A DNA stretch of 63,733 nucleotides, the filler included. It is 9 parts of 9 records of this genome, joined end to end, with 100 filler letters (N's around TTAATTAATTAA, not from the genome) between each part and the next. Parts side by side here need not be neighbours in the genome. Positions count along the whole stretch, not along the records: positions 52,332 to 58,165 come from SRR7504441_6152; 8 more parts are not named here. One strand, 5' to 3'. The notes beneath the pieces are model-generated. The model was not told where the DNA came from. It saw only the letters and a list, made by a program, of their open reading frames with translations, and did not search any database. Below are positions 3,680 through 58,265 of this stretch, piece after piece. Each line of letters starts with the position of its first letter. The stretch's first letter is position 1. The position numbers and the translations under genes are program-made.

Positions 3680-5573
3680 TCACGCACTCACTACGTTGTT
3701 GTTTTCGATGGTGATGTCCGTCGCCCCCGGCATCATCGCCACGATGTCGTCCATCGACTTGCACGCCTTGCACACAAAGGTGTTGTGCGACAGGGTGAGG
3801 TTGGACAGCTCCATGGGACCCTCGTAGAAGGACGGCAGCAGCAGGAACTCAAGCTCCTCCTGGTTGGTGTTGGAGAAGTGGTTGCCTTCAATGCGGGAGT
3901 CTGAGGACTTGAACCGACCGAACAGACCTGTGGAGTAGCTGAAGTTGCTGTTGCGGATCACGGCGCCCCGCGCCCGCGCTCGCTCCATCTCCACCATGTA
4001 CGGCACCGCAAGGCCCGCGTGCGGCGATGTGGGTGGGGCGCTGGCGAGTGAAATCTCGTACACGGTGGCTCTGAAGTGCTGCACTGGGTAGTGCTGCCCG
4101 TTGAACGAGCTGAACTTGTACGGCGCTTGGCTCACAGCAGAGTAGAGACCGTCGGCCTGCTTGCCCAGTGTGCTGTTGATGCTGGCATCCAGCTCCTGCG
4201 GCCAGGCCGACACCGTGCTATCGCCCAGGAAACCCATGCCCACTGGGTCGTAGAATCGCAGCTTGTCGCCTGGAGCCAGTCGCCGTAGAGGCTCCGAAGT
4301 GCCGTAGTAGAGGTTGGTGATGCCGTCGGTGGCCTGATCAGACGTGTGCGGGTGCACCAGGGTGATGCTGGCTCCGCTATCGGAGGTGTTCTTCACCCCC
4401 ATCACCATCATCACCGTGTTCTGCACATTCCAGTAGTCATCCAACAGGTGCGAAATCGTGCAGCCGTCAATGAGGGGCCCGTGATCCACGTCTTCACCTT
4501 GCAGCCACACGAATCAGGGCTGGCGAGGGCCAGGAGGAGGAGTCACTGTGTATGCCATCCGCGTTGACAGAGATGAGGCGTCCGGGGCCGGGCACGATGC
4601 TGACATTGAGGTAGCTGTGGGCACCGTGACCGTCGATCTCAGCGACGGCCATGTAGCCAGAGGCCCTGACAGTCAGGGACGGTGAGGGCGGGTGAGGGCG
4701 ATGTTCCGGGTCAGGATTTCGAGTTAGGGTTAGGGTTAGGGTTAGGGTATTGGTGAGCATCCAGGTTAGGGTGTGGGCGACGCGTAAGGTATAGTCTGTC
4801 GTCAGTCTGGTGGTATGGGTGTCGACCTGATGGCCACGTCCTGAGTGGTAACCCTGGTGGAGTTCGCGACCCCATAGCTGTACCCCAGCCACACCGTCGC
4901 CACAAAGTTATCCCCCACTGCCAGCTTGCATCTGCTGCTGGTCGGGTACTGGAAGGTTCGATTTCCGAGCGCCACAATGCTGCTCGAGTCAAACGAACCC
5001 TGGCATTTCGGTTTGTCTGACTCGGCGTCCCCACCGAAATACCAGACGATGGGCGCATTCACGGCGTCTGCCCCCACCGACCAGTAGTCTGGCAACTCCG
5101 TCAGGGAATCCTCGGGCACGGTGTACACAAACGATTTCCCGGAGATGCCGGTGACGGCGCCTCGGATGTACCTGATGCACAAGCCACAGGTGAGCGGCAG
5201 AGCAGGTCACGGTGGGCTCTTACGGGGTCGGGTTGCGATCCAGGATGAAGCCTTTGAAGGTCACGTCTGTGCTGTCTTTGATGCGCACGGCACCGTTGTA
5301 GCCCCAGTTCCACAGTGTGGAGTCGGTTTCCGACCGAATGGTGAGGCCCGTGGCCCCCTCGATCAGCAGCGTCTTGTTGCCCAGCTGATAATCGCCGTGC
5401 ACCACCAGCTCCTTGTCACCACGGGCGATGGCGGCGTTGACGTCCGCTTGCAGCTGGTCGGCATCGCCGAGAGCGGGCCCCGAGGACGAGGGCAGGCCCT
5501 GCACCGTCGTCATCAGCGTAGTAGCAGCGACAGCGACGCAGAGCAGTGTGTGCACGGTAGTGGCGGGCTGCAT
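3680..5573 (-). CDS. Secreted parallel beta-helix glycoside hydrolase, GH110-like; 4 exons
   Basis: Signal peptide. Introns 5172-5223, 4666-4826 and 4498-4546 join four track ORFs in frame. Motif NADGIHS...GPLIDGC...DDYWNV and beta-helix-like repeats (IRNSNF, IEGNHF). Confidence 0.65.
4724..4771 (+). repeat. Intronic telomere-type repeat (TTAGGG)4 plus one more unit
   Basis: TTAGGG x4 at 4724-4747 and a fifth unit at 4766-4771, inside intron 4666-4826. Confidence 0.9.
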
Positions 5574-10819: not shown

Positions 10820-10919
10820 NNNNNNNNNNNNNNNNNNNNNNNNNNNNNNNNNNNNNNNNNNNNTTAATTAATTAANNNNNNNNNNNNNNNNNNNNNNNNN
10901 NNNNNNNNNNNNNNNNNNN
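10820..10919. other. Artificial contig linker N44-TTAATTAATTAA-N44
   Basis: The same 100-nt spacer, with stops in all six frames, occurs eight times. Confidence 0.97.
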
Positions 10920-13168
10920 CCACGATCACCCTTGAGACCATTACGACCACCAACGCCTTGCGGACCAGGAGCACCAGGATCACCCTTCTGTCCCTGCTTA
11001 CCCATCTCTCCACGCTCGCCACGAGGTCCCATTGGCCCAGTCGGACCGCCAGCCCTAGGTCCAGCAGCACCACGGCTGCCCTTTGGACCTTGGATGCCCT
11101 GGGGACCCTGAGGTCCGGTAGCACCGCCGCCGCGCGGACCCTTGGGACCACGGTTGCCAGTGTCACCCTTGGGACCTTGGATACCCTGCTGACCACGGGG
11201 ACCAGTGCGTCCTTCAGCTCCCTTCTCGCCCTTGAGACCCTGCGGCCCGGGGGGTCCAGCAACACCACGGACGCCTTGGGGGCCACGGTCGCCACGAGGT
11301 CCCTTCACACCAGCCTCTCCGTTCTTGCCGTTCTTGCCAGACTGGCCAGCGACACCGGGAGGACCGGCAGGTCCGATGGGACCAGGGTCACCCTTCACGC
11401 CTTGGGGTCCAGGATTGCCCTTGACACCAGTTGGGCCCTGCTTTCCTTCGACGCCCTGGGGCCCGGTCTTGCCGCGAAGACCGATGGGACCAGCCGGACC
11501 AGTCGCTCCAGGGGGGCCGCGCATGCCAGCAGGGCCTTGTTCGCCTTGCTTGCCTCGCAGACCGACTGGACCAGCAGCGCCAACCGGACCAAAGGGTCCT
11601 TGCTTACCCATCGGCCCAAGGCTGCCAGGAATACCAGGAAGACCTTGAATACCCATTTTGCCAGTCTTACCAGAGTCGCCACGCAGACCTTGCATACCAC
11701 GAGGGCCCATCAGACCAGGTGCTCCACGAACTCCAGTGTCTCCCTTCATACCACGCTCGCCTCCAGGGCCGGGGGGACCAGTCGGACCCTTGTCGCCTTG
11801 CGGACCCTTGTCACCAGACGGACCCTTGGGACCGAGAGGACCGGTAAGTCCAGGAACACCAGGATCGCCCTTGTCGCCCTTGGGACCCTTGAGACCCATG
11901 CGACCAGTAGCACCAATAGCTCCGGGTTCGCCCTTCGGTCCGATGGGACCGCGCTCGCCGACGGGACCACGTGGACCAGGCTCGCCTTGCTCGCCCTTGG
12001 GACCACGATCTCCAGCAATGCCAGGACGACCCTCAGCGCCTGTGTCTCCCTTGTCGCCCTTGTTACCACGAGGACCAGTGTCGCCAGGAGGACCACGAGC
12101 ACCAACCGGGCCCTGATCTCCCTTGGGACCGGCCGGACCAGCTGGGCCCGGCTTTCCGTTGTTGCCATCTTCGCCCTTGGGGCCACGCGGACCCATCATG
12201 CCGACAGGACCAGCAGGACCAGCGTCTCCCTTGTCACCCTTGGGACCAGTAAGACCGGGAGGACCGCGAAGAGTGCTAGGCCGCCCGTTCTCACCAGGAT
12301 CACCAGCCATACCACGGTCGCCCTTGGGACCGGGAGGACCAGCATCACCACGGGGCCCCTTGGGACCAGCCTGGCCGTTCAGCCCATTGACACCGTCTTT
12401 GCCTGAGGATGCCGCGGGCCTGTTTGCGACAGACAAGAGCTTCGTCACCATAGCGCTATCCGAGATTTTGCTAAGCTCTCCAGCATTCTTTGCAAGACCA
12501 CCAAGGTTGGTGGCAGCTGCGCTTGAGCTCATGCCAGAAAGCAAGACCTGCAGGGCAAAATAGACGTGAGCAGTGTGTCGTTCGCGCAGAACCGAGCGCC
12601 GCATGCACGCGATGGGCACCCATGCATGTCGACAGCTAACTAGAGGGCAAACAGCACAGATTTGGCAAGCTTATCTCAAGCTATCTCGACTGGGGTGGAT
12701 GGCACCTTGAGCTTTTGCGAGTTCTCCGGGCTCATTAGATATTGGAGGTTTGACAGATCAGTAGGGGCGCCCATGCTTTCACCGACATCGCCGTGCTTCT
12801 CCAGTCCTGCGGGCATCCGGCTCAGCACAGGTGTGCGCGGGTAGCAGAGCAGAGGCGGGAAAGGGGGGTTGCGAGGTGGGTCAGCCGAGGCTGAGCGACG
12901 AGGGGTCTACAATCACTCGGGAGGCCACTCGGTTGCCCGTCCCTCACTGCGCGCGGGTCGCACGGCGGACAGGGACACGGCCTGGCTCCCAAGCCGAAGA
13001 TGAGCTGTGGGGGGTGGGCAACCCGCCGATTGCACGGGTGGGAAGGGGAGGACGGCGCGGGGTGGTGAGCTCACCAGTCGCTTCGGCGTCGCCCACGCCA
13101 AACACGGTCATGAACACCGCCACGGCCATCGCCAGTGCAATGCCCATAGGCACGCGCCGCTGCGCCAT
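10920..13168 (-). CDS. Secreted collagen-like protein with about 160 or more Gly-X-Y triplets (3'-truncated)
   Basis: Exon 1 (13168-13075) encodes a signal peptide. Introns 12807-13074 and 12548-12705 splice in frame. The Gly-X-Y run goes from about 12403 to the contig end. Confidence 0.85.
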
Positions 13169-20980: not shown

Positions 20981-21080
20981 NNNNNNNNNNNNNNNNNNNN
21001 NNNNNNNNNNNNNNNNNNNNNNNNTTAATTAATTAANNNNNNNNNNNNNNNNNNNNNNNNNNNNNNNNNNNNNNNNNNNN
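20981..21080. other. Artificial contig linker
   Basis: N44-TTAATTAATTAA-N44. Confidence 0.97.
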
Positions 21081-21161: not shown

Positions 21162-22776
21162 ATGCCCGCTTGTCAAGAATGCGGCTGTCAGTTCGATAAC
21201 CCGATGCTCCTCCGGCAGCACCGCAAGTGCTGCCCCCCACCCCCGCCCCCGCCCGACGACGCCGGTCCGCTCCCCCGCCGGGCCCCGCCCATCCGGTGTG
21301 TCAGAGCTGGTGGCCGAGAGCCTCTACTGCACAGCCCCGGCCGACCCGACCCCGCCGGCGGAACGCCCCACCCCGCGGCGCCGGCCAATCGCCCGGGTGC
21401 TCCCGACCGGCAGCCCCATGCAGCGCCGCCAACGCGACCGGCGCATCCAGGCCGACGTGACTCCCGGCGGCCGACTGTCGCGACCGGCGGGGCAGGTGCG
21501 CTGGGGCCGGAACAAGGCAACGGTGGAGATCAACCCGTGAGTCGGCCGGGATAGGCTGGGCCGAGCCCGGGGGCAGATGTGCGCAGCTGCCGCAGCTGCT
21601 CGAGCAGCTCGGGAGAGTGGAGGGCCTGCCCGAGCAGCCTCGGCTGGTCTGCAACGGCACATTGCTCCCTGCAGGCCAACGGCTGAGCTCCGTGCTCCAT
21701 CCGAGCAGCTGGTGCGCGCCTGCCTGTGTGGCTCTGAGCTGGGAGGTACAGCCGCGCCAAGCTGAGGCTGATAGAGCAGCCAGCCGGTCCGTGCAACGAG
21801 CGGGTGACGCTCAGTGTCCGGTGGGCCGCGGCCCGGGGCTGGGCGAGTGTGCGGATAGGTCTTTGGACAAGTGGAGCTGCACGCTGCGGGCCCGCCCGGC
21901 TGACCTGGTGCCTGGAGCCTACAGGGGCCTGTGCCAGCCAGGGGACAGATCAAGAGTTTGTATCGAAGGATCTTAGGCCGGAGGACCAGCGACCCAGTGG
22001 GTTGATGCCATGGCAGGAGCGAGTAGTGGGCGCAGGTGGACGCGTGGACGCTGCACCTGCCTGGGCTGCCGCTGCTGCACAAGGAGCATACGCTGGCCGA
22101 TTACGGTAGCCCTGCTCCGATGGCGGCACGAGTCGGCCCAGGGATCACTGACAACGAGCTGCTGTACTGGCTGCCCACCTCGCACCCCGAGGTGCTCCCT
22201 GGCCAGTCAGCTCTGACCCGGTGCAGGCTTCTAGGAGGATGCATGCCATAGCCCCGGCCAGCCGCCCGACAAGGCCTCCAAAGCCACTCCGTCGCGGTTT
22301 CCTGCTGAGCCGGCCCTCGGTCTCCGGTATCTGCCTGGTAAATTTGCTGGCGCGAGGAGCTGGCGGGCGCAGATGTACCAGCAGAGGAGCCGGAGGCGGC
22401 AGAGGAGGCCGAGTCGGTTGTGGAAGCGCTGTATTCAGGGGTATTCAATTCTCCACAGCTGGCTGTGCCTGAGACATCAGCGGACGCCTTGCTAGCGGAT
22501 GCGGGCGGGAGGGCGGGCAGCAAGCGGCGTAAACACAAGCGGCCGCGCTGCCAGGTGTGTGGGGCGGCGCTGTCGATGGCGGCTTGTGCGATGAGGCAGT
22601 GCAAGTGCAATGGGAGCTTTTGCTCGGAGCATCGACTGCCAGGTAGCCAGATTGCCTGATTGTGGAGTCAGCTCACTCACTCCTTGGGGGCAGAGCAACA
22701 CCAATGCGTGCTGGACTATAAATCAGGCACGCAGCTGCCCCAACCGGTGGTTCCGCCCAAGGTTTTCCCCATCTGA
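21162..22776 (+). CDS. Ubiquitin-like plus AN1 zinc-finger protein (ZFAND4-like architecture); multi-exon
   Basis: N-terminal C..C.F...L.QH knuckle; Ubl-like RLVCNG..L and TLADYGI.D (after intron 22106-22141); AN1 finger RCQVC...CKC.G.FC.EHRLPEQH.C..DYK. Middle exons are approximate. Confidence 0.6.
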
Positions 22777-29390: not shown

Positions 29391-29490
29391 NNNNNNNNNN
29401 NNNNNNNNNNNNNNNNNNNNNNNNNNNNNNNNNNTTAATTAATTAANNNNNNNNNNNNNNNNNNNNNNNNNNNNNNNNNNNNNNNNNNNN
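29391..29490. other. Artificial contig linker
   Basis: N44-TTAATTAATTAA-N44. Confidence 0.97.
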
Positions 29491-34818: not shown

Positions 34819-34918
34819 NNNNNNNNNNNNNNNNNNNNNNNNNNNNNNNNNNNNNNNNNNNNTTAATTAATTAANNNNNNNNNNNNNNNNNNNNNNNNNN
34901 NNNNNNNNNNNNNNNNNN
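34819..34918. other. Artificial contig linker
   Basis: N44-TTAATTAATTAA-N44. Confidence 0.97.
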
Positions 34919-38702: not shown

Positions 38703-38802
38703 NNNNNNNNNNNNNNNNNNNNNNNNNNNNNNNNNNNNNNNNNNNNTTAATTAATTAANNNNNNNNNNNNNNNNNNNNNNNNNNNNNNNNNNNNNNNNNN
38801 NN
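38703..38802. other. Artificial contig linker
   Basis: N44-TTAATTAATTAA-N44. Confidence 0.97.
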
Positions 38803-48174: not shown

Positions 48175-48274
48175 NNNNNNNNNNNNNNNNNNNNNNNNNN
48201 NNNNNNNNNNNNNNNNNNTTAATTAATTAANNNNNNNNNNNNNNNNNNNNNNNNNNNNNNNNNNNNNNNNNNNN
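48175..48274. other. Artificial contig linker
   Basis: N44-TTAATTAATTAA-N44. Confidence 0.97.
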
Positions 48275-52231: not shown

Positions 52232-52331
52232 NNNNNNNNNNNNNNNNNNNNNNNNNNNNNNNNNNNNNNNNNNNNTTAATTAATTAANNNNNNNNNNNNN
52301 NNNNNNNNNNNNNNNNNNNNNNNNNNNNNNN
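52232..52331. other. Artificial contig linker
   Basis: N44-TTAATTAATTAA-N44. Confidence 0.97.
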
Positions 52332-52745
52332 AAGCCGAAGCGGATCTCAAAGCCCAAAATCCGGCGGCAACCCAGCTCTAGTGATACTGTATGATTGCAC
52401 ACGACCTGTAGATCTAGTTCGGACGTCGGCTGATGAGAAGCTTATGCGGAGCTCAGTAGAAGTGTTACCCGCGTACTTAGAATGCTTAGTAGCATTCTCA
52501 GTAGCTACTCAGCTCCTTGTTGCTTGCCTCGCACACGATCTTCAATCTCATCTTCATAAAGACTTTAATAATAAAGACTTAATAAAGACTCAGTACAGAC
52601 TTAGTACAGACTTCGTATGCATAAAGGATTTAGCATGCATACCATCAAGATACCACCGGAGGAGATAAATGTACTTACGCGTATGTAGCTAGCTTATAAT
52701 CATGTAGTGCTAGGCCTAGTGCCATGCCTAATGCCCTGAATAAGC

Positions 52746-55714
52746 CTACCGGGCCGAGACAATCTCGTGGCCGTCAATCATGTCTAAATCAGAATTGCGA
52801 GCAAACTTGTAATCTGCAACGAGCTCCACCCCGGCGGGGACTTTGCTCAGCGCCGCCACTTCGACCACTGGGTATGGCAATGTTTTCTTGCTTGGTTTCA
52901 GTTTAAACTCCACATTCGGCCTAGTAGATACGCCATGAAATGAATTGATGAACCTAGTTTCGTTGCCATGTAGCTGAGCATCTATTATGAGCCCCTTGGA
53001 CCGATCGTAATCCAACTCGTAGCGTGAATTTCCTTGCCTTGAGGTTGTATCAGCGACACGCCGAACCAGACCTGTGTATTGGCCTATGATGTCGTCTTTC
53101 TTCCAGCCTTGTGCTGCAAAAAGCCCAAACTCCACTTGGCTATTCTGACCAAATGCTGGATGGCCTTGCTTCACAGGCCTGATCTCAACTCCTTTCATCA
53201 GCACCGGCCGATTCACCAGTTTCTGAATAGCCTCAGCACCGCTCCACATCAGCATCGGTGTGAACAGCACTTCCTCGGGCCAAAACTTTGGCGAAACAAT
53301 CTGTTCGTCATAGTCCTCTTCGTTGATCTCCTCATCCTCAGCTGAAGAAGGCGGTTTCCACCCCTCAAGCAATTGTGTTTCTCGTGCCTGACGCCTGCTA
53401 GGTTCTCGCGGCAGCGTCGTTGGGGTCTGTACCCCTCTCTGCTCGGACCTACAGGCATTTCGCTGGGCACGCGCATTGGTCGCCTCTTGACGTGCCCTCT
53501 CCCGTTCGGCCTGCTGGCGCTCGGCATGAAGGCGCGAGGCTTGCTGACGCCAGAACTGGGCATCCTTTGAGCAGCGCCTAGCTGAAGGTGGAGCTTTTCG
53601 AGGTCGAGGCTTGGCGCGTTTGGGTGGCGGTGGCATGTCTTCGTCGGATTGGTCGCAATTTCCGAAGATGGCAGAGGAGTATGCAACGCTATCGCACGCT
53701 AACTGGCAAGTTGTGCCGGGTTTTAGCTCGCAAAACCACTCGGATTGCTCGTTCTGGTACCTTGAAAACATTGCTTGATCGACAATTCTCCACTTTTCGC
53801 ACCTATCACACTGTAGCCAGTTGTCATCAACTTCCTCTCCAACCGCCAGCATGTTGTCAAGACGCTGGAGTGCAGCGCCTTGCTCACGAATCCTCTGCAA
53901 GTCTTGACTGTGCTGGCGGCCCGCTATAGTCGATCTCTGCACTCCGAGCTCTGCCAGCACGTTCTGTGATTCATTGGTTGTAGCGTAACTCTCCATTTTT
54001 GTTGGCAGTTGCTTCCGAAGGCTGGCCATTGTCACTGTCTCTTTGTAACTCTGCTTGTTATGTGTCGGTTTGCCATTGGTAGTCTCGATCACCCCCACCA
54101 CCCCTTGCAAGCACTCATGATCCTCTAACATGGTTCCGAGTCGGTGGTATGGCATTATTAGTCTCGGGATGCCATCCCCCTTGCGGTTGTAAAAGAGCAG
54201 CCCGCGAACGTCTGATAGCTCAGTCGTTTCTTGCTGCACGGTTACACAGTCCACGTGGCAAATCCTCTTCAGTGATACCTTAGATTCCCGCCTTTCTATT
54301 TCCTTGACGTTTGCCTCAGTGTAATACACATCGGCTCTGGTTCCTTGGCTGCTCTCGTGCACATTCTCGACTCGTGCATGGTAGTACTTCTTGTGGGGCC
54401 GCCACCACACATCCACTGCATACAGCAGGCTCACAGCCCTATCATCGCAGCAACGCACCGCTCAGCCCTTTCCGCAACTCTTCTGGTGTTACCTGCCGCC
54501 TCTCTTCTGGTTTCACTGTGACCTGCCTACCCTCAACCCGACCCGCTGCCCACCAATACCAGGTTCACCCCAAAAGACACCTGGGCAGTCGGGACTGGAG
54601 CGTCGCAGCGATCACATCTCTTAACTCCGTTGCATACACGGATGCTAGTACCACCACACACCCCATCACGTTCGACGTCCTCCTCGCATCTGAATGTCAA
54701 GGACGGCTTAAAGCTCACAACTTTCTTGAGTAACGTCAGCGCATTCACCGGCTCTACGGGCACCCCGCTGATTCGAATCTGAGTTGTTGGATTCAAGTAC
54801 AATATCTTACAATAAGCTCGGAGGGACCGCTTCCATTGAGACGAGAGAGGCGCATGCACTGCATTATCGGTCGGGACCTCAACTTCGGTCAGCCTCAGGT
54901 CGCCAGGCTCATCAAGCTCCCACGCATCGTGCAATGCACTCACCAGCACCATGGTGCCAGACCTAGCTGTGCCTAATTTGTCATCCACCAGTCCGAGCAG
55001 GGCCGCCTCAGTCTTCAGGCCAGAGTACCGCAGCACGTACCCGAGATCCCGATCCCACCGTTGCTGCCCATGGTGAATCACTGGCTGATAACCATTGGCG
55101 CCACGGGTCCAGGCCGTCTCCGGAAGGTAAATCTCGTTCGCATCTGCACCGCACTCAGGGTTGCACGCAGCAGGCACGCACTCCACTCTCCCAAGAATGT
55201 CTGCGACAGCAGCATGCAGCGCAGATGAGGTGCCTGTTTCGTTATCACCAGCGCGTCTTTGCCCACCCGCATCGAGCTGCTCTTGAAGCCGTTCCCGTGC
55301 TCTCCAATCTTATCCAGCCCTTTCTCGCACTGGCCGAAGCTGCACATCTTGTGCAGTTGCTCCCTATCCATCCCGGCACCGTCGTCCGTGAACAGCAGCG
55401 CGCCACCCGGCTGGCCGTCGAGCCGGACGTGCTCGATCCACACCGAGCCGGCCGCCGCATCCTGCGCGTTGTCGATCAGCTCCGCCACCGCCCCCAGCAC
55501 CTGCCCCCGGGTGAGCCCCGGCTGTGTACATGCCCGGGACCCATGTGTGCGAGGTCGAGTTGCTGTGCAGGAACTTTGGGTGGATCCCGGCGGTGCGCAG
55601 GTTGCTCAGGCCGTCCCGGGTACCTTGCCAGTCGCTGCTGGAGGCCGCGTCGGACGCTGCAGGGTTGCACCCAGCAGGCAACCGCCAGGGCATCTTGGCT
55701 GTAGCCATTGGCAT
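52746..55714 (-). CDS. MORC: MORC-family GHKL ATPase with a Tudor-like insert, CW zinc finger and C-terminal SET domain; 5 exons
   Basis: Introns 55501-55540, 55144-55181, 54523-54559 and 54416-54458 give one frame. MORC motifs HPKFLHSNSTSH.W, AELIDNA.D, DDG.GM, IG.HGNGFKS.SMRVG, SLRAYC.ILY and PTHNKQ; CW finger WLQCDRCEKWR...WFC; SET motifs GLFA, IDA...GNETRFIN and ELVADY. Confidence 0.85.
54523..54559 (-). repeat. 37-nt intron, copy A of a duplicated intron
   Basis: GTATTGGTGGGCAGCGGGTCGGGTTGAGGGTAGGCAG; 36/37 identical to 56797-56833. Confidence 0.9.
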
Positions 55715-55790
55715 CTTCTCATCAGAGGGGCGGATCTTTCCGTTGTTCCGTTGTGGTTGTGTAACCGACGCGGCCAGCCCGTGGCTCGCA

Positions 55791-58102
55791 ATGTCCCAAT
55801 TGCGCAACACGCGGCTTCATCTGGCCCAAGAGCTCCGGCAGCACCGCCCGTCGCAGCCGCCCACCCCTCGGGGCTTGACCAGGAGGGAGCGCGACCTCGC
55901 CCAGCGGAGGGAGCTGCTTGACTCGGCCTGGGCGGCCCCTCGAGAGCCTGAGAGGCACCGACTGTACGACTCCACCCCTCAGCCCGCCCCAAGAGGATTC
56001 GAGACCCCGCGACAGTACGATCCCGCCCCCAGAGGCTTCGAGACCCCGCGGCAGTACGACCCAGTCCCTCAGCCCGCTAGTGCCGATTTGCTCAGCACAG
56101 TGGAGCGCGAGAGAGGCGACGCCTTTGAGGCTGAATGCGCGTCGCTCCGGCGGGCGCAGCATAAAACCGTGCAGGAGTCCACGGGGCTGGTCAAGCAGCT
56201 GCAGGCGCCGGGCGGCCGGGCTGTCGGCGCCGAGTGCGGGGGCAGGCCCAGCTCGAGGCCCAGAGTCAAGTGGCTTCGCTGCTCGAGGACAGGGCCGAGA
56301 ACGCCGAGACTCGGCTGGCAGAGGCCCAACGGTCGGGCGCGGGGTTGGCCGAGACAGCGCAGGAGCTGCGCATGACGATCGACCAGCTGCACAGCCGAGA
56401 GACGGGTTGGCGCTCCCAGATGGAGGCCGCTGAGATGCGAGCTGCGAGGCTGGAGCATGCGCTGGGCGCAACCAAGGCCGAGCTGGCGGAGGCGGTAACC
56501 GACCTGGTTGCCTGGCGGTCAGTTGGGGGCAGTTGAAGCTAGGCGAGCTGGCCCGGGAGCACGAGTCCAAGGCGCGGGAGGCGGCCTCGGAGGAGCGGAC
56601 GAGCCGCGATATGGAGATGAGTAGGACAGAAGCTCTCCAGCGCCAGCTGGCCAAGGCAACGGCCCCATGGTCAGGCCTGACCTGTGCACAGATGCAGCGC
56701 GAGATGTCCGAGCTGAACCGGGACCGCGCCGGCTCGGATCAGCTCCACGCGCTGATTAGTCAGTTGGAGGTTGGGCTTTCTGACGAGAGGCACAAGGTAT
56801 TGGTGGGCGGCGGGTCGGGTTGAGGGTAGGCAGGTTGAAGCGGCCTTGTCTCGAGGGTCGCAGCTCGAGCTGCAGCTGGACAACGAGCGCTCGCACGCCA
56901 AGCGCGAGTCTGAACGGGCTGACTGCAGCTCGCAGGAGCTAGAGCACACGAAGCAGCTGCACATGAGCACTGTGGCCAAGCTCAGAAGCGAGATGGGCGA
57001 GATGCAGGCTACCATCGCCCGGAAGGACACGCAGGGCAGCCACGAGACTGGGCTGCTTAAGGACGAGATCGTACAGATGACACGGGCTCTTCACGCGCTC
57101 GAGAGCACCAATGAGGATCTACAGGCCAAGCTCGGGTACGCGCTGGCTGATGGTGAGGCGAGCCAGACAGAGGTGGCCAAGTTGTCTCAGCACCTGGCCG
57201 AGGCGGTGGACGAGCTGAACGAAGCCCGGTACAAGCTGCAGGGCGGCAAGCTGGATCAGGTGCCTCACACTGGGCACGGGCTGCTCGATCTCGTTGGAGA
57301 GAGGCTGGTCCAGAGGCAGCTGACGGGGGAGGAGCACGATGAGCTCGCCCGGTGCCACAAGCGGTGCAGCGAACTCGACAGCGAGCTCGCGAGGCTCCGA
57401 CCGGAGCTGGCTCAGATGCGGCTCCGTTCTGACCGGGCGGATCGCGAGAAGAGCGATGTTGCTCAGCTGCGATATGAGCTGGAAGCGGCGCAGCAGGCTT
57501 TGGAGCGAAGCTTGCAAGAGAGGGATCGGTTGCTCCGCGAGTTGGATCGAATGGCCGAGCAGAGCAGACGGCCGGTGGCACAGGACAAGAGCCCACTGGC
57601 GAGGCTGCTAGCGTTGCGGATGCTGCTGCAAGGCTGGAGATGGCGTGGGAAGCGCCGGCTATATGAGAGGTTTGCTCTCTGGAAAGAGATCTGGGCGTTG
57701 GGCAGGGAAGATGCTACGAGGGTAGCCTGCGCAACCAGGCTGATGAGGAGCTATGCAATGGTGTTGCTCGGGCCACAAGCTTTGGCGTTTGCACAGATGA
57801 GAGTCAACTACATGCTCGAGTCGAGCCTCAGGTCCGTCAAAAGCAAGAAGGTGCAAAGCAAGAAGGTGCAAGTCGACATCCACAACACCCCCCGCTCCAC
57901 TCCCCGAGGCAGGCAGGCAGCACCAGCTTCGTCATTCAGCCATGCAAACGTCGATTCTGCCATCGCAGATCACCATGCCAGGCAAAGGGCATATTCGAGC
58001 ACGACTCGAACGAGCAAAACTGTCACGGTGCCTGATGGCTTTTCGTCATTCCGACAGCGCTCGTCGTCAGCCGAGAGGCGCCACTTTTCATGGGACCAAT
58101 AG
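55791..58102 (+). CDS. Long coiled-coil protein with an N-terminal 13-aa duplication (PAPRGFETPRQYD x2); multi-exon
   Basis: Heptad-rich exons joined by introns including 56205-56245 (GC-AG) and 56797-56833. Confidence 0.65.
56797..56833 (+). repeat. 37-nt intron, copy B of a duplicated intron
   Basis: GTATTGGTGGGCGGCGGGTCGGGTTGAGGGTAGGCAG; contains an in-frame TGA, so it must be spliced. Confidence 0.9.
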
Positions 58103-58165
58103 GCCTGCAATTGGTGTGCCGCATGCAATCATTATTTACAATAAAGCCTAGATTTACAATAAAGC

Positions 58166-58265
58166 NNNNNNNNNNNNNNNNNNNNNNNNNNNNNNNNNNN
58201 NNNNNNNNNTTAATTAATTAANNNNNNNNNNNNNNNNNNNNNNNNNNNNNNNNNNNNNNNNNNNN
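58166..58265. other. Artificial contig linker
   Basis: N44-TTAATTAATTAA-N44. Confidence 0.97.

Follow-up and report, generated by a model that had tools for sequence, protein, structure and literature searches.

The origin of new spliceosomal introns is a long-standing open question, and cases in which both a source intron and an allele with the empty site can be identified are few (PMC3443670; PMC3488318). The locus described here raises this question in a narrow form: how did the same 37-nt intron come to lie in two genes that are neighbours but unrelated, in an uncultured marine eukaryote? The DNA analysed (hereafter the window) is 63.7 kb long and consists of nine concatenated contigs of metagenome type. 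An earlier note on this DNA had reported the two copies, one in a MORC gene and one in a coiled-coil gene, with 36 of 37 bases alike; both positions and match were reproduced, as was the divergent arrangement of the hosts, whose start codons lie 76 bp apart. The genes and introns concerned are the following.

52746..55714, minus strand: MORC-CW-SET gene, five exons, with HATPase_c_3, Morc6_S5, zf-CW and SET domains; spliced ORF of 936 aa
55501-55540, 55144-55181, 54523-54559 and 54416-54458, minus strand: introns of the MORC-CW-SET gene, of 40, 38, 37 and 43 nt
54523..54559, minus strand: 37-nt intron copy, third intron of the MORC-CW-SET gene, phase 0; polymorphic, exactly absent in a related strain
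55715..55790, no strand: 76-bp spacer between the divergent start codons, presumed to be a shared promoter
55791..58102, plus strand: orphan coiled-coil-like gene, product rich in A/R/L/E/Q, four exons; spliced ORF of 731 aa
56205-56245, 56495-56532 and 56797-56833, plus strand: introns of the orphan gene, of 41 (GC-AG), 38 and 37 nt
56797..56833, plus strand: 37-nt intron copy, third intron of the orphan coiled-coil-like gene, phase 0; probable donor

When the whole window was searched with the 37-mer at up to three mismatches, two matches were found, the copy at 56797-56833 (plus strand) with no mismatch to the query and that at 54523-54559 (minus strand) with one, while 100 dinucleotide-preserving shuffles gave a mean of 0.00 matches and none of them had two or more. 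Moreover, a k-mer scan identified this intron pair as the longest non-trivial exact repeat of the window, at 26 nt with the exonic GT counted in. The common sequence is bounded by a G before and a GT after the 37 nt. That the similarity stops at the junctions, with only this G/GT context in common (the slash marking the junction), is confirmed by the 150-nt sense-oriented flanks, whose local alignment scores of 10 and 11 are at the level of shuffles (means 10.0 and 10.1) and were equalled or beaten by 279 and 182 of 500 shuffles, respectively. With identity confined to the stretch between the splice junctions, and with unrelated flanks, the copied unit is the intron itself. Segmental duplication or paralogy is contradicted by flank scores no better than those of shuffles. 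Nor is the intron a tandem copy of adjacent exon sequence, as expected if an AGGT-containing segment had been duplicated in tandem, for the copies lie in different genes, in opposite orientations on the DNA and with 2.2 kb between them.

Both copies have the character of ordinary introns. They are of the GT...AG type, beginning with GT and ending with CAG, and both contain a TTGAG some 13 nt before the 3' end, a position occupied by CTGAG or CTCAC in several of the other predicted introns; by inspection, TTGAG is a putative branch-point-like motif. The 936-aa and 731-aa ORFs are open only after removal of the 37-nt copies together with the other 37-43-nt GT/GC-AG introns: a stop codon follows 8 codons on if the MORC copy is left in and 9 codons on for the copy in the coiled-coil-like gene. 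The claim that both copies are in sense orientation, in phase 0 and needed for the frame thus holds. Boundaries, branch-point-like motif and frame restoration together point to U2-type spliceosomal introns, which are presumably spliced out. In the MORC-CW-SET gene, the 40-nt intron falls exactly between the stretches that align to residues 3-24 and 25-131 of human MORC3, no residue being lost or added, and this alignment, exact to the residue, validates that intron. In addition, of the coding differences listed between the MORC gene of the window and that of a related strain (X1), 23 of 30 are synonymous, and they are found on both sides of the intron; this predominance indicates that the gene is under purifying selection, and hence that the 37 nt must leave the message. 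No Pfam family was found in the 731-aa orphan protein, and no relatives of it were found in the public collections scanned. We consider it very probable that the two segments are real copied introns.

In length, the copies (37 nt) are close to the five other introns of both genes (38-43 nt). The predicted folds are weak, with minimum free energies of -2.8 and -2.9 kcal/mol, weaker than those of 197 and 186 of 200 shuffles, and neither end complementarity nor folding against these 200 shuffles revealed a terminal inverted repeat (TIR) or a hairpin in either copy. The lack of TIRs asserted previously was thus upheld, the ends of the copies not being complementary. The pair is unusual for the window in base composition (G 54-57%, C 11%) and in one further feature.

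56805..56826, plus strand: canonical G-quadruplex motif with four G3 runs, inside the intron on the sense strand; also present at 54530-54551 (minus strand) in the MORC copy

Such a motif occurs in 3 of the 88 predicted short introns of the window, two of the three being this pair; the whole window holds 17 G-quadruplex loci on both strands.

Further evidence comes from contigs of runs X1 and X4. One X1 contig (record 5, 931 nt), which differs from the window at 7 of 408 nt and at 13 of 519 nt (identity about 98%), is missing precisely the 37 nt of the MORC copy: 54522 is joined to 54564, with 4 letters replacing 54560-54563. The reading frame of this allele is open across the same MORC junction. 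The 43-nt MORC intron, 64 nt from the missing copy, is retained in this contig, and the two other introns of the coiled-coil gene are retained in a second X1 contig (record 6); X1 is therefore genomic DNA. By arithmetic on the depth table, record 5 accounts for all of the X1 depth in the bin of the MORC copy. Conversely, a contig of X4 (record 22) passes through the MORC copy ungapped and extends 30 letters past the intron, one letter short of the 31 required by the bridging rule applied. The MORC intron is thus a presence/absence polymorphism between strains, and since X1 is without the copy and X4 has it, the position is not old and fixed. These two contigs strengthen the case for intron copying made in the earlier note.

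The same contigs bear on whether an error of metagenome assembly might have produced one of the copies or placed the two genes side by side. The window is made of joined contigs of metagenome type, and neither the copy in the coiled-coil gene nor the intergenic link is bridged among the run contigs listed: the MORC and orphan genes were seen side by side only in the contig of the window itself, none of the run contigs shown crosses 55842-56036, and after 55691 one X1 contig diverges from the window. However, the flanks of each copy are unique on either side and, when joined, restore a long ORF, a repeat-induced misjoin would sit at the repeat instead of yielding two complete, framed copies, and the independent X4 contig passes through the MORC copy while the X1 contig sets its exact limits. 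An artefact of this kind is extremely improbable.

A polymorphic intron may reflect gain in one lineage or loss in the other. Loss is generally commoner than gain, with two accepted mechanisms (PMC3443670), and short direct repeats flank the MORC intron, so that both positions might be older and kept alike by gene conversion or selection, the X1 lineage having lost its MORC intron precisely, either through cDNA or by deletion between the flanking G-GT repeats. Yet conversion of 37-nt tracts without flanking homology is implausible, and the 36/37 match would still need copying, hence two events in a short time. Retention in X1 of the 43-nt intron only 64 nt away is atypical for cDNA-mediated loss, and deletion between GGT repeats would leave G/GT, whereas X1 has T/GT. 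This scenario appears very improbable. Parsimony favours a single gain over a gain with subsequent precise loss, and we regard gain of the MORC copy as likely. The copies differ at 1 of 37 nt, and a copy older than the strain split should show about 2 differences; with a probability of about 0.4 for one or fewer (by arithmetic), this single difference does not date the copy relative to the split.

The junction itself differs between the two alleles.

54560..54563, minus strand: last two codons before the MORC intron, AAC CTG in the window and AAT CTT in X1; both changes at third positions and synonymous

With these codon changes next to the junction, the empty site of X1 reads T/GT. The proposal that GGT is a 3-bp target site duplication (TSD) is consequently not supported, GT being at most common to both ends. 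Indeed, the bases repeated at the intron ends are splice-site bases only (G-GT ... G-GT), a pattern which is called ambiguous as a TSD in the account of Gozashti et al. 2022 (PMC9860276).

The two substitutions also raise the question of DNA-level repair, in which a double-strand break or stalled fork in the MORC gene would have been mended by template switching or templated end-joining, with about 37-40 nt copied from the nearby gene, inverted and guided by 1-2 nt of microhomology, the insert being kept by selection only because a whole sense-oriented intron happened to be copied. In template-switch or templated-insertion repair, templates are typically nearby and often inverted; here donor and copy are separated by 2.2 kb in cis and have opposite orientations on the DNA. 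The G and GT common to the junctions may represent microhomology, the G-quadruplex motif of the donor could stall replication, and two extra substitutions within 4 nt of the junction would be expected of error-prone repair: at the 2.2% divergence of the contig, at least two of four positions would differ with a probability of about 0.003, a value calculated post hoc. Nevertheless, these substitutions are synonymous and could represent ordinary polymorphism or selection for G at position -1. Moreover, both limits of the copied tract are those of the intron, within an ambiguity of 1-2 nt, while a random templated copy would usually bring extra exon bases, exact copies being a small minority of viable events in a rough count of in-frame alternatives. 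We therefore hold this route to be quite unlikely. Intron gains in double-strand-break repair, with short flanking repeats, have been proposed for Daphnia pulex populations (Li et al. 2009, as reported in PMC3488318 and PMC3443670). Our locus resembles those gains, as presented in these reviews, in the presence/absence of an intron within natural populations and in the short direct repeats that bound the new intron; it differs in that the reviews describe the Daphnia introns as without identifiable source, whereas here an exact copy of the source intron lies 2.2 kb away.

Copy number bears on another possibility, which the earlier note had set beside local transfer between co-transcribed genes: the two copies might be members of an introner family, very short and TIR-less, that is dispersed in many further copies through the genome, adjacency being due to chance or local hopping. 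Introners and introner-like elements are described from Micromonas, Aureococcus, dinoflagellates and fungi, and in that survey near-identical introns in unrelated genes are their signature, commonest in aquatic protists, with some families lacking TIRs and TSDs and still identical from end to end (Gozashti et al. 2022, PMC9860276). The present pair shares the near-identity in unrelated genes and the marine protist host. Presence/absence between close strains is also typical of active families, and the odd composition and rare G-quadruplex motif (3/88) are what a distinct family might show. Against this, only two copies were found in the nine contigs, both within 2.3 kb, and no third copy was found in the window at up to 12 mismatches. 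Public collections gave no hits either, which has no bearing on this point, the organism itself being absent from them. Among the 88 predicted short introns of the window there is no second similar pair, the best other pair reaching a normalised score of 0.44 vs 0.95 for the 37-nt pair; the suggestion that copying is the source of the genome's introns of roughly 39 nt thus finds no support in this set. The operational definition of an introner family given in that survey is at least four similar introns (PMC9860276), and the count here is two, in 63.7 kb, a small sample of the genome. The element has neither TIR nor hairpin, its TSD is ambiguous, with an empty site (T/GT) unlike GGT, and at 37 nt it does not exceed the ordinary introns of the window in length. 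In fungi, low-copy duplicated introns have normal length, whereas high-copy introner-like elements reach about double that length and have more structure, according to the summary of Collemare et al. 2013 (PMC3609843). Membership in a dispersed family is, in our opinion, unlikely, and we lean slightly towards a local, low-copy event.

Those low-copy duplicates, termed LCI by van der Burgt et al. 2012 and read in the same summary (PMC3609843) as low-frequency intron transposition, alongside same-gene intron duplications (SGD), are among the closest likenesses. As in the LCI described there, the pair is near-identical (36/37) and in very few copies, with unrelated flanks and hosts (MORC and orphan), ordinary length and folding energy and no stable fold. 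Unlike them, it comes from an uncultured marine eukaryote with introns of about 40 nt, its copy number was counted in 63.7 kb only, donor and recipient are adjacent and divergently transcribed, and natural strains differ in whether they have one of the copies. For intron transposition by reverse splicing, indirect cases have been described in Oikopleura and Mycosphaerella, with 14 events listed in Table 1 of PMC3443670, and two transposition events were captured with a yeast reporter (Lee & Stevens 2016, as cited in PMC10996645); a variant of the model involves R-loops (Simmons et al. 2015, PMC4540971). In those cases as in ours, an intron already present elsewhere turns up again, in sense orientation and with its exact limits, at a site formerly free of introns that resembles a spliced junction (GT after G or T). 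Our case differs in that it is known from DNA sequence alone, and the closeness of donor and recipient is absent from the published descriptions cited here for those cases.

Taken together, we give about an even chance to the interpretation that the MORC intron is a recent gain, in which the neighbour's intron was copied whole by low-copy intron transposition, a spliceosome-defined route being the likeliest. The transfer probably ran from the coiled-coil gene to MORC. In such a transposition, the 37-nt intron would be excised from the transcript of the coiled-coil-like gene, 2.2 kb from the MORC site, and reverse-spliced at a site with G or T before GT in the nascent transcript of MORC, which would then be reverse-transcribed and recombine; alternatively, its direct target might be DNA, namely the non-template strand displaced in an R-loop. 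Once in place, the intron would be spliced as its parent is. Mediation by the spliceosome is proposed tentatively, just short of an even balance, and sense-strand G-skew at the MORC site (0.2-0.3), within about one standard deviation of the gene mean, gives the R-loop variant no support. The more specific picture, a local snapshot of a G-quadruplex-bearing intron reverse-spliced into the nascent RNA or R-loop DNA of the divergent neighbour that shares its presumed 76-bp promoter region, with filled and empty alleles still segregating in the sea, is possible but doubtful.

To conclude, this locus offers donor, recipient and empty site within about 2% divergence, probably a rare fresh trace of intron gain by copying. 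Since the introns of the hosts are near minimal size, the copied unit comprises hardly more than the splice signals. The divergent adjacency leads to a testable prediction of locality, through co-transcriptional transfer or template switching in cis, which genome-wide introner surveys have left unaddressed. More local pairs across the genome, if found, would bear directly on reverse-splicing and R-loop models (PMC4540971; PMC10996645). If local transposition is the true explanation, closeness at a shared transcription site helps determine where new introns land.

A search of the window with the 37-nt sequence, allowing up to 3 mismatches, returned two places: an exact one at 56797-56833 (+), the predicted third intron of an orphan coiled-coil-like gene, and one with 1 mismatch at 54523-54559 (-), the predicted third intron of a MORC-CW-SET gene. 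The near-identity reported in the earlier note therefore stands, at 36/37 bases. In 100 dinucleotide-preserving shuffles of the window the mean number of matches was 0.00, and two matches occurred in none of them. A third copy was not found in the 63.7 kb by a relaxed ungapped scan to 14 mismatches, where the single further match (22239-22275, 13 mismatches) is noise. By a k-mer scan, no other non-trivial exact repeat in the window is as long as that of the pair (26 nt, with the exonic GT counted in). The copies share G/37 nt/GT and their identity ends there. Indeed, their sense-oriented 150-nt flanks gave alignment scores of 10 and 11 against shuffle means of 10.0 and 10.1, equalled or beaten by 279/500 and 182/500 shuffles, in agreement with the earlier claim that the likeness stops at the junctions. 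Since the flanks align no better than shuffles, segmental duplication and paralogy of the two loci are both ruled out. A tandem AGGT duplication was also ruled out, the copies being 2.2 kb apart and inverted, as was a TIR or hairpin element, the 37-nt intron being unstructured and, as noted earlier, devoid of terminal inverted repeats. A match of 36/37 between unrelated flanks requires a copying event under any scenario.

The window is composite, and its contigs are joined as follows.

Joints between contigs in the window
10820-10919, 20981-21080, 29391-29490, 34819-34918, 38703-38802, 48175-48274, 52232-52331, 58166-58265: eight identical linkers

Each linker is a 12-nt motif carrying stop codons in every frame, flanked on both sides by 44 N. 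Eight linkers imply nine artificially joined contigs, a concatenated bin from an uncultured organism, so that neither distance nor adjacency has any meaning across a linker; both intron copies lie on one contig, 52332-58165. The GC content is 61%, an atlas search with an aspartyl protease returned 'Eukaryota' only, with mixed phyla, and scans of the window for Rfam families and tRNAs found 0. Elsewhere, a long collagen-like Gly-X-Y coding repeat at 10922-12670 (-) has direct-repeat families of 33-79 nt and a 583-aa open frame truncated by the contig end. Telomere-like repeats of the TTAGGG type form a short internal run at 4723-4748 (+), accompanied by G-quadruplex motifs at 4676-4698 and 4727-4747.

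The minus-strand host gene (52746..55714) has the Pfam domains HATPase_c_3, Morc6_S5, zf-CW and SET, and removal of introns of 40, 38, 37 and 43 nt leaves a single 936-aa ORF. Exon 1 ends in a stretch that aligns with human MORC3 residues 3-24, and exon 2 opens with one that aligns with residues 25-131, with no gap and no surplus; this exact alignment across the 40-nt intron indicates that the MORC gene genuinely contains GT-AG introns of about 40 nt. To our knowledge, the fusion of a MORC GHKL ATPase and S5 domain to a CW zinc finger and a C-terminal SET domain has not been described. The plus-strand host gene (55791..58102), once introns of 41 (GC-AG), 38 and 37 nt are removed, encodes a 731-aa orphan product rich in A, R, L, E and Q, in which no Pfam family was found. 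The apparent GC donor of its first intron, 56205-56245 (+), 41 nt, is the sole frame-keeping solution found there, and its exon 1 carries a tandem 39-nt duplication (55983-56060 (+), 90% identical) encoding a repeated 13-residue unit. Both 37-nt segments are in phase 0 and, if either is kept, a stop follows 8-9 codons on, which bears out the earlier statement that the frame needs their removal. The hosts are divergent, with start codons 76 bp apart, again as the earlier note had it. Protein searches returned 0 matches for the MORC middle ORF and 0 for the coiled-coil ORF at 'near' and 'shorter' lengths, and thus identified no additional alleles or outgroups.

Contigs of four sequencing runs, labelled marine or aquatic metagenomes, were aligned to 52332-58165. 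Record 5 of run X1 (931 nt, depth 5.07) covers 54115-54522 with 7 differences and 54564-55082 with 13, the two parts being joined by four letters that replace 54560-54563; exactly 37 nt are absent and two junction-adjacent bases differ. The MORC junction reads AAC CTG/intron/GTC in the window and AAT CTT/GTC in X1, both changes being synonymous. All X1 depth in the bin of the MORC copy is explained arithmetically by this record. It retains the 43-nt MORC intron, 64 nt downstream, and record 6 of the same run (56039-56597, gapless) has the neighbour's 41- and 38-nt introns; X1 is therefore genomic DNA and not spliced RNA. In run X4, record 22 (204 nt, 54386-54589, 2 differences, gapless) runs through the MORC intron, reaching 30 letters past it, one below the 31-letter bridging rule applied in the alignment. 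The comparison of presence and absence that the earlier note had suggested thus yields, in the run contigs, an allele exactly without the MORC copy in X1 and one with it in X4. The coiled-coil copy is spanned by no contig piece among those listed; X1 depth in the two bins around it is 0.64 and 1.28, and these pieces show neither a joint nor a loose end there. Of the best-supported MORC coding differences listed for X1 against the window, 23/30 are synonymous, and the intron has synonymous changes on either side. By this sequence comparison the gene is under purifying selection, which argues for removal of the 37 nt from the message.

Other features were noted along 52332-58165. Five of the 7 listed MORC replacements cluster in 53342-53470 (-), where 8 listed X1 differences fall within about 115 nt; our home-made gene finder called this segment an in-frame 129-nt intron, but it may instead code for a basic linker that evolves fast. 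Contigs of runs X1, X2 and X3 share a back-joint (52505 to 52474, with an identical 17-letter spacer; depth up to 25 in X3), which resembles a small repeat or a rearrangement on the downstream side of MORC, commoner than the remaining contig. An X1 contig tracks the window to 55691, in the first MORC exon, and then continues with about 50 letters unlike it. The MORC 5' end or promoter region (55691; 55715-55790) is thus different in the related strain of run X1, and adjacency of the two genes is claimed for the window only.

That the MORC copy was gained rather than lost is, in our judgement, fairly likely, since copying after the split from X1 needs one event while earlier copying needs a second, an exact loss. 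Such a loss from an older copy is the less favoured reading: it would have spared an intron 64 nt away, and would have left T/GT instead of G/GT. Divergence between X1 and the window at third positions and in the neighbouring intron is roughly 5-6% by our estimate; an older copy predicts about 2 differences in 37 nt and 1 is seen (P(<=1) ~0.4), so divergence is not decisive. We infer that copying would have run from the coiled-coil gene to MORC, solely because the MORC copy is the polymorphic one.

Both copies might instead belong to a dispersed introner family. Introns were predicted with a home-made finder, whose first pass was noisy and whose second pass weighted intron lengths by a prior centred on 40 nt; the mode of 38-41 nt for short introns across the window is therefore partly circular. 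For the two copies the finder set donors 6 and 9 nt off the 37-nt limits (in-frame alternatives, giving 31- and 46-nt introns), and the limits of the copied unit were taken from the X1 empty site. The 88 predicted short introns form 3,828 pairs, with a best normalised score of 0.44 (mean 0.02, sd 0.12); the 36/37 match would score 0.95 by arithmetic. This comparison rules out chance likeness from common intron constraints, and no other similar pair was found among the 88. The earlier suggestion that such copying is the source of the genome's introns of about 39 nt is accordingly unsupported in the window. A canonical sense-strand G-quadruplex motif is present in both copies and in 3/88 predicted introns, 2 of the 3 being the pair, which is unusually C-poor (11%). 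An introner family is operationally at least 4 introns in the account of Gozashti et al. (PMC9860276), where a repeat of splice-site bases, the sole flanking 'repeat' of our copies, is described as ambiguous as a target-site duplication. The earlier proposal of GGT as a 3-bp duplication does not fit the empty site, which reads T/GT. With no third copy in 63.7 kb (a small sample), no other similar predicted pair, and an unstructured, TIR-less element not longer than ordinary introns of the window, we consider a dispersed family unlikely. A 24-nt intron core had 0 matches in metagenome_contigs and 0 in viral_contigs, a 22-nt core had 0 in genome_contigs, and 28 pattern matches to the MORC C-terminal ORF in metagenome_contigs gave 0 confirmed relatives; because the source organism is itself absent from these collections, such blanks are uninformative on copy number. 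Adjacency of the only two copies in the window is expected under local transfer, whereas two copies placed at random among about 25 genes would, by our estimate, be neighbours roughly 1 time in 10. In fungi, near-identical introns in few copies (LCI), with ordinary length and folding energy, are a recognised class, unlike long, structured, high-copy introner-like elements, according to PMC3609843; by analogy, the present pair may for now be filed with the former.

The copied unit coincides with the intron at both ends, which favours a process able to 'know' intron limits, be it the spliceosome or an element ending at splice sites; a random DNA copy fits these exact limits less well. The main mechanistic rival, in which templated repair or template switching copied an inverted sequence lying nearby, would explain the two junction-adjacent substitutions (P ~0.003, post hoc) and explains the exact boundaries less well; we hold it to be quite improbable. 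Two routes have been published: reverse splicing into mRNA with subsequent reverse transcription and recombination (PMC3443670), and reverse splicing straight into the DNA strand that an R-loop displaces (Simmons et al. 2015, PMC4540971), the latter favoured in PMC10996645. By either route the new intron would lie in sense orientation as a matter of course, and a target that shares the 76-bp promoter region could be favoured. Speculatively, the G-quadruplex motif or C-poverty might make the excised intron more stable or help R-loops to form. Sense-strand G-skew at the MORC site (0.18-0.34, against a gene mean of 0.13, sd 0.16) is within about 1 sd of that mean and is thus uninformative on R-loop proneness.

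To conclude, the kind of event is already known as intron duplication or transposition, with 14 indirect cases in Oikopleura and Mycosphaerella (PMC3443670) and two laboratory events in yeast, as cited in PMC10996645. In contrast to these cases, the present intron is near-minimal in size, its probable donor and recipient are divergent neighbours, and alleles with and without it occur side by side in natural populations.
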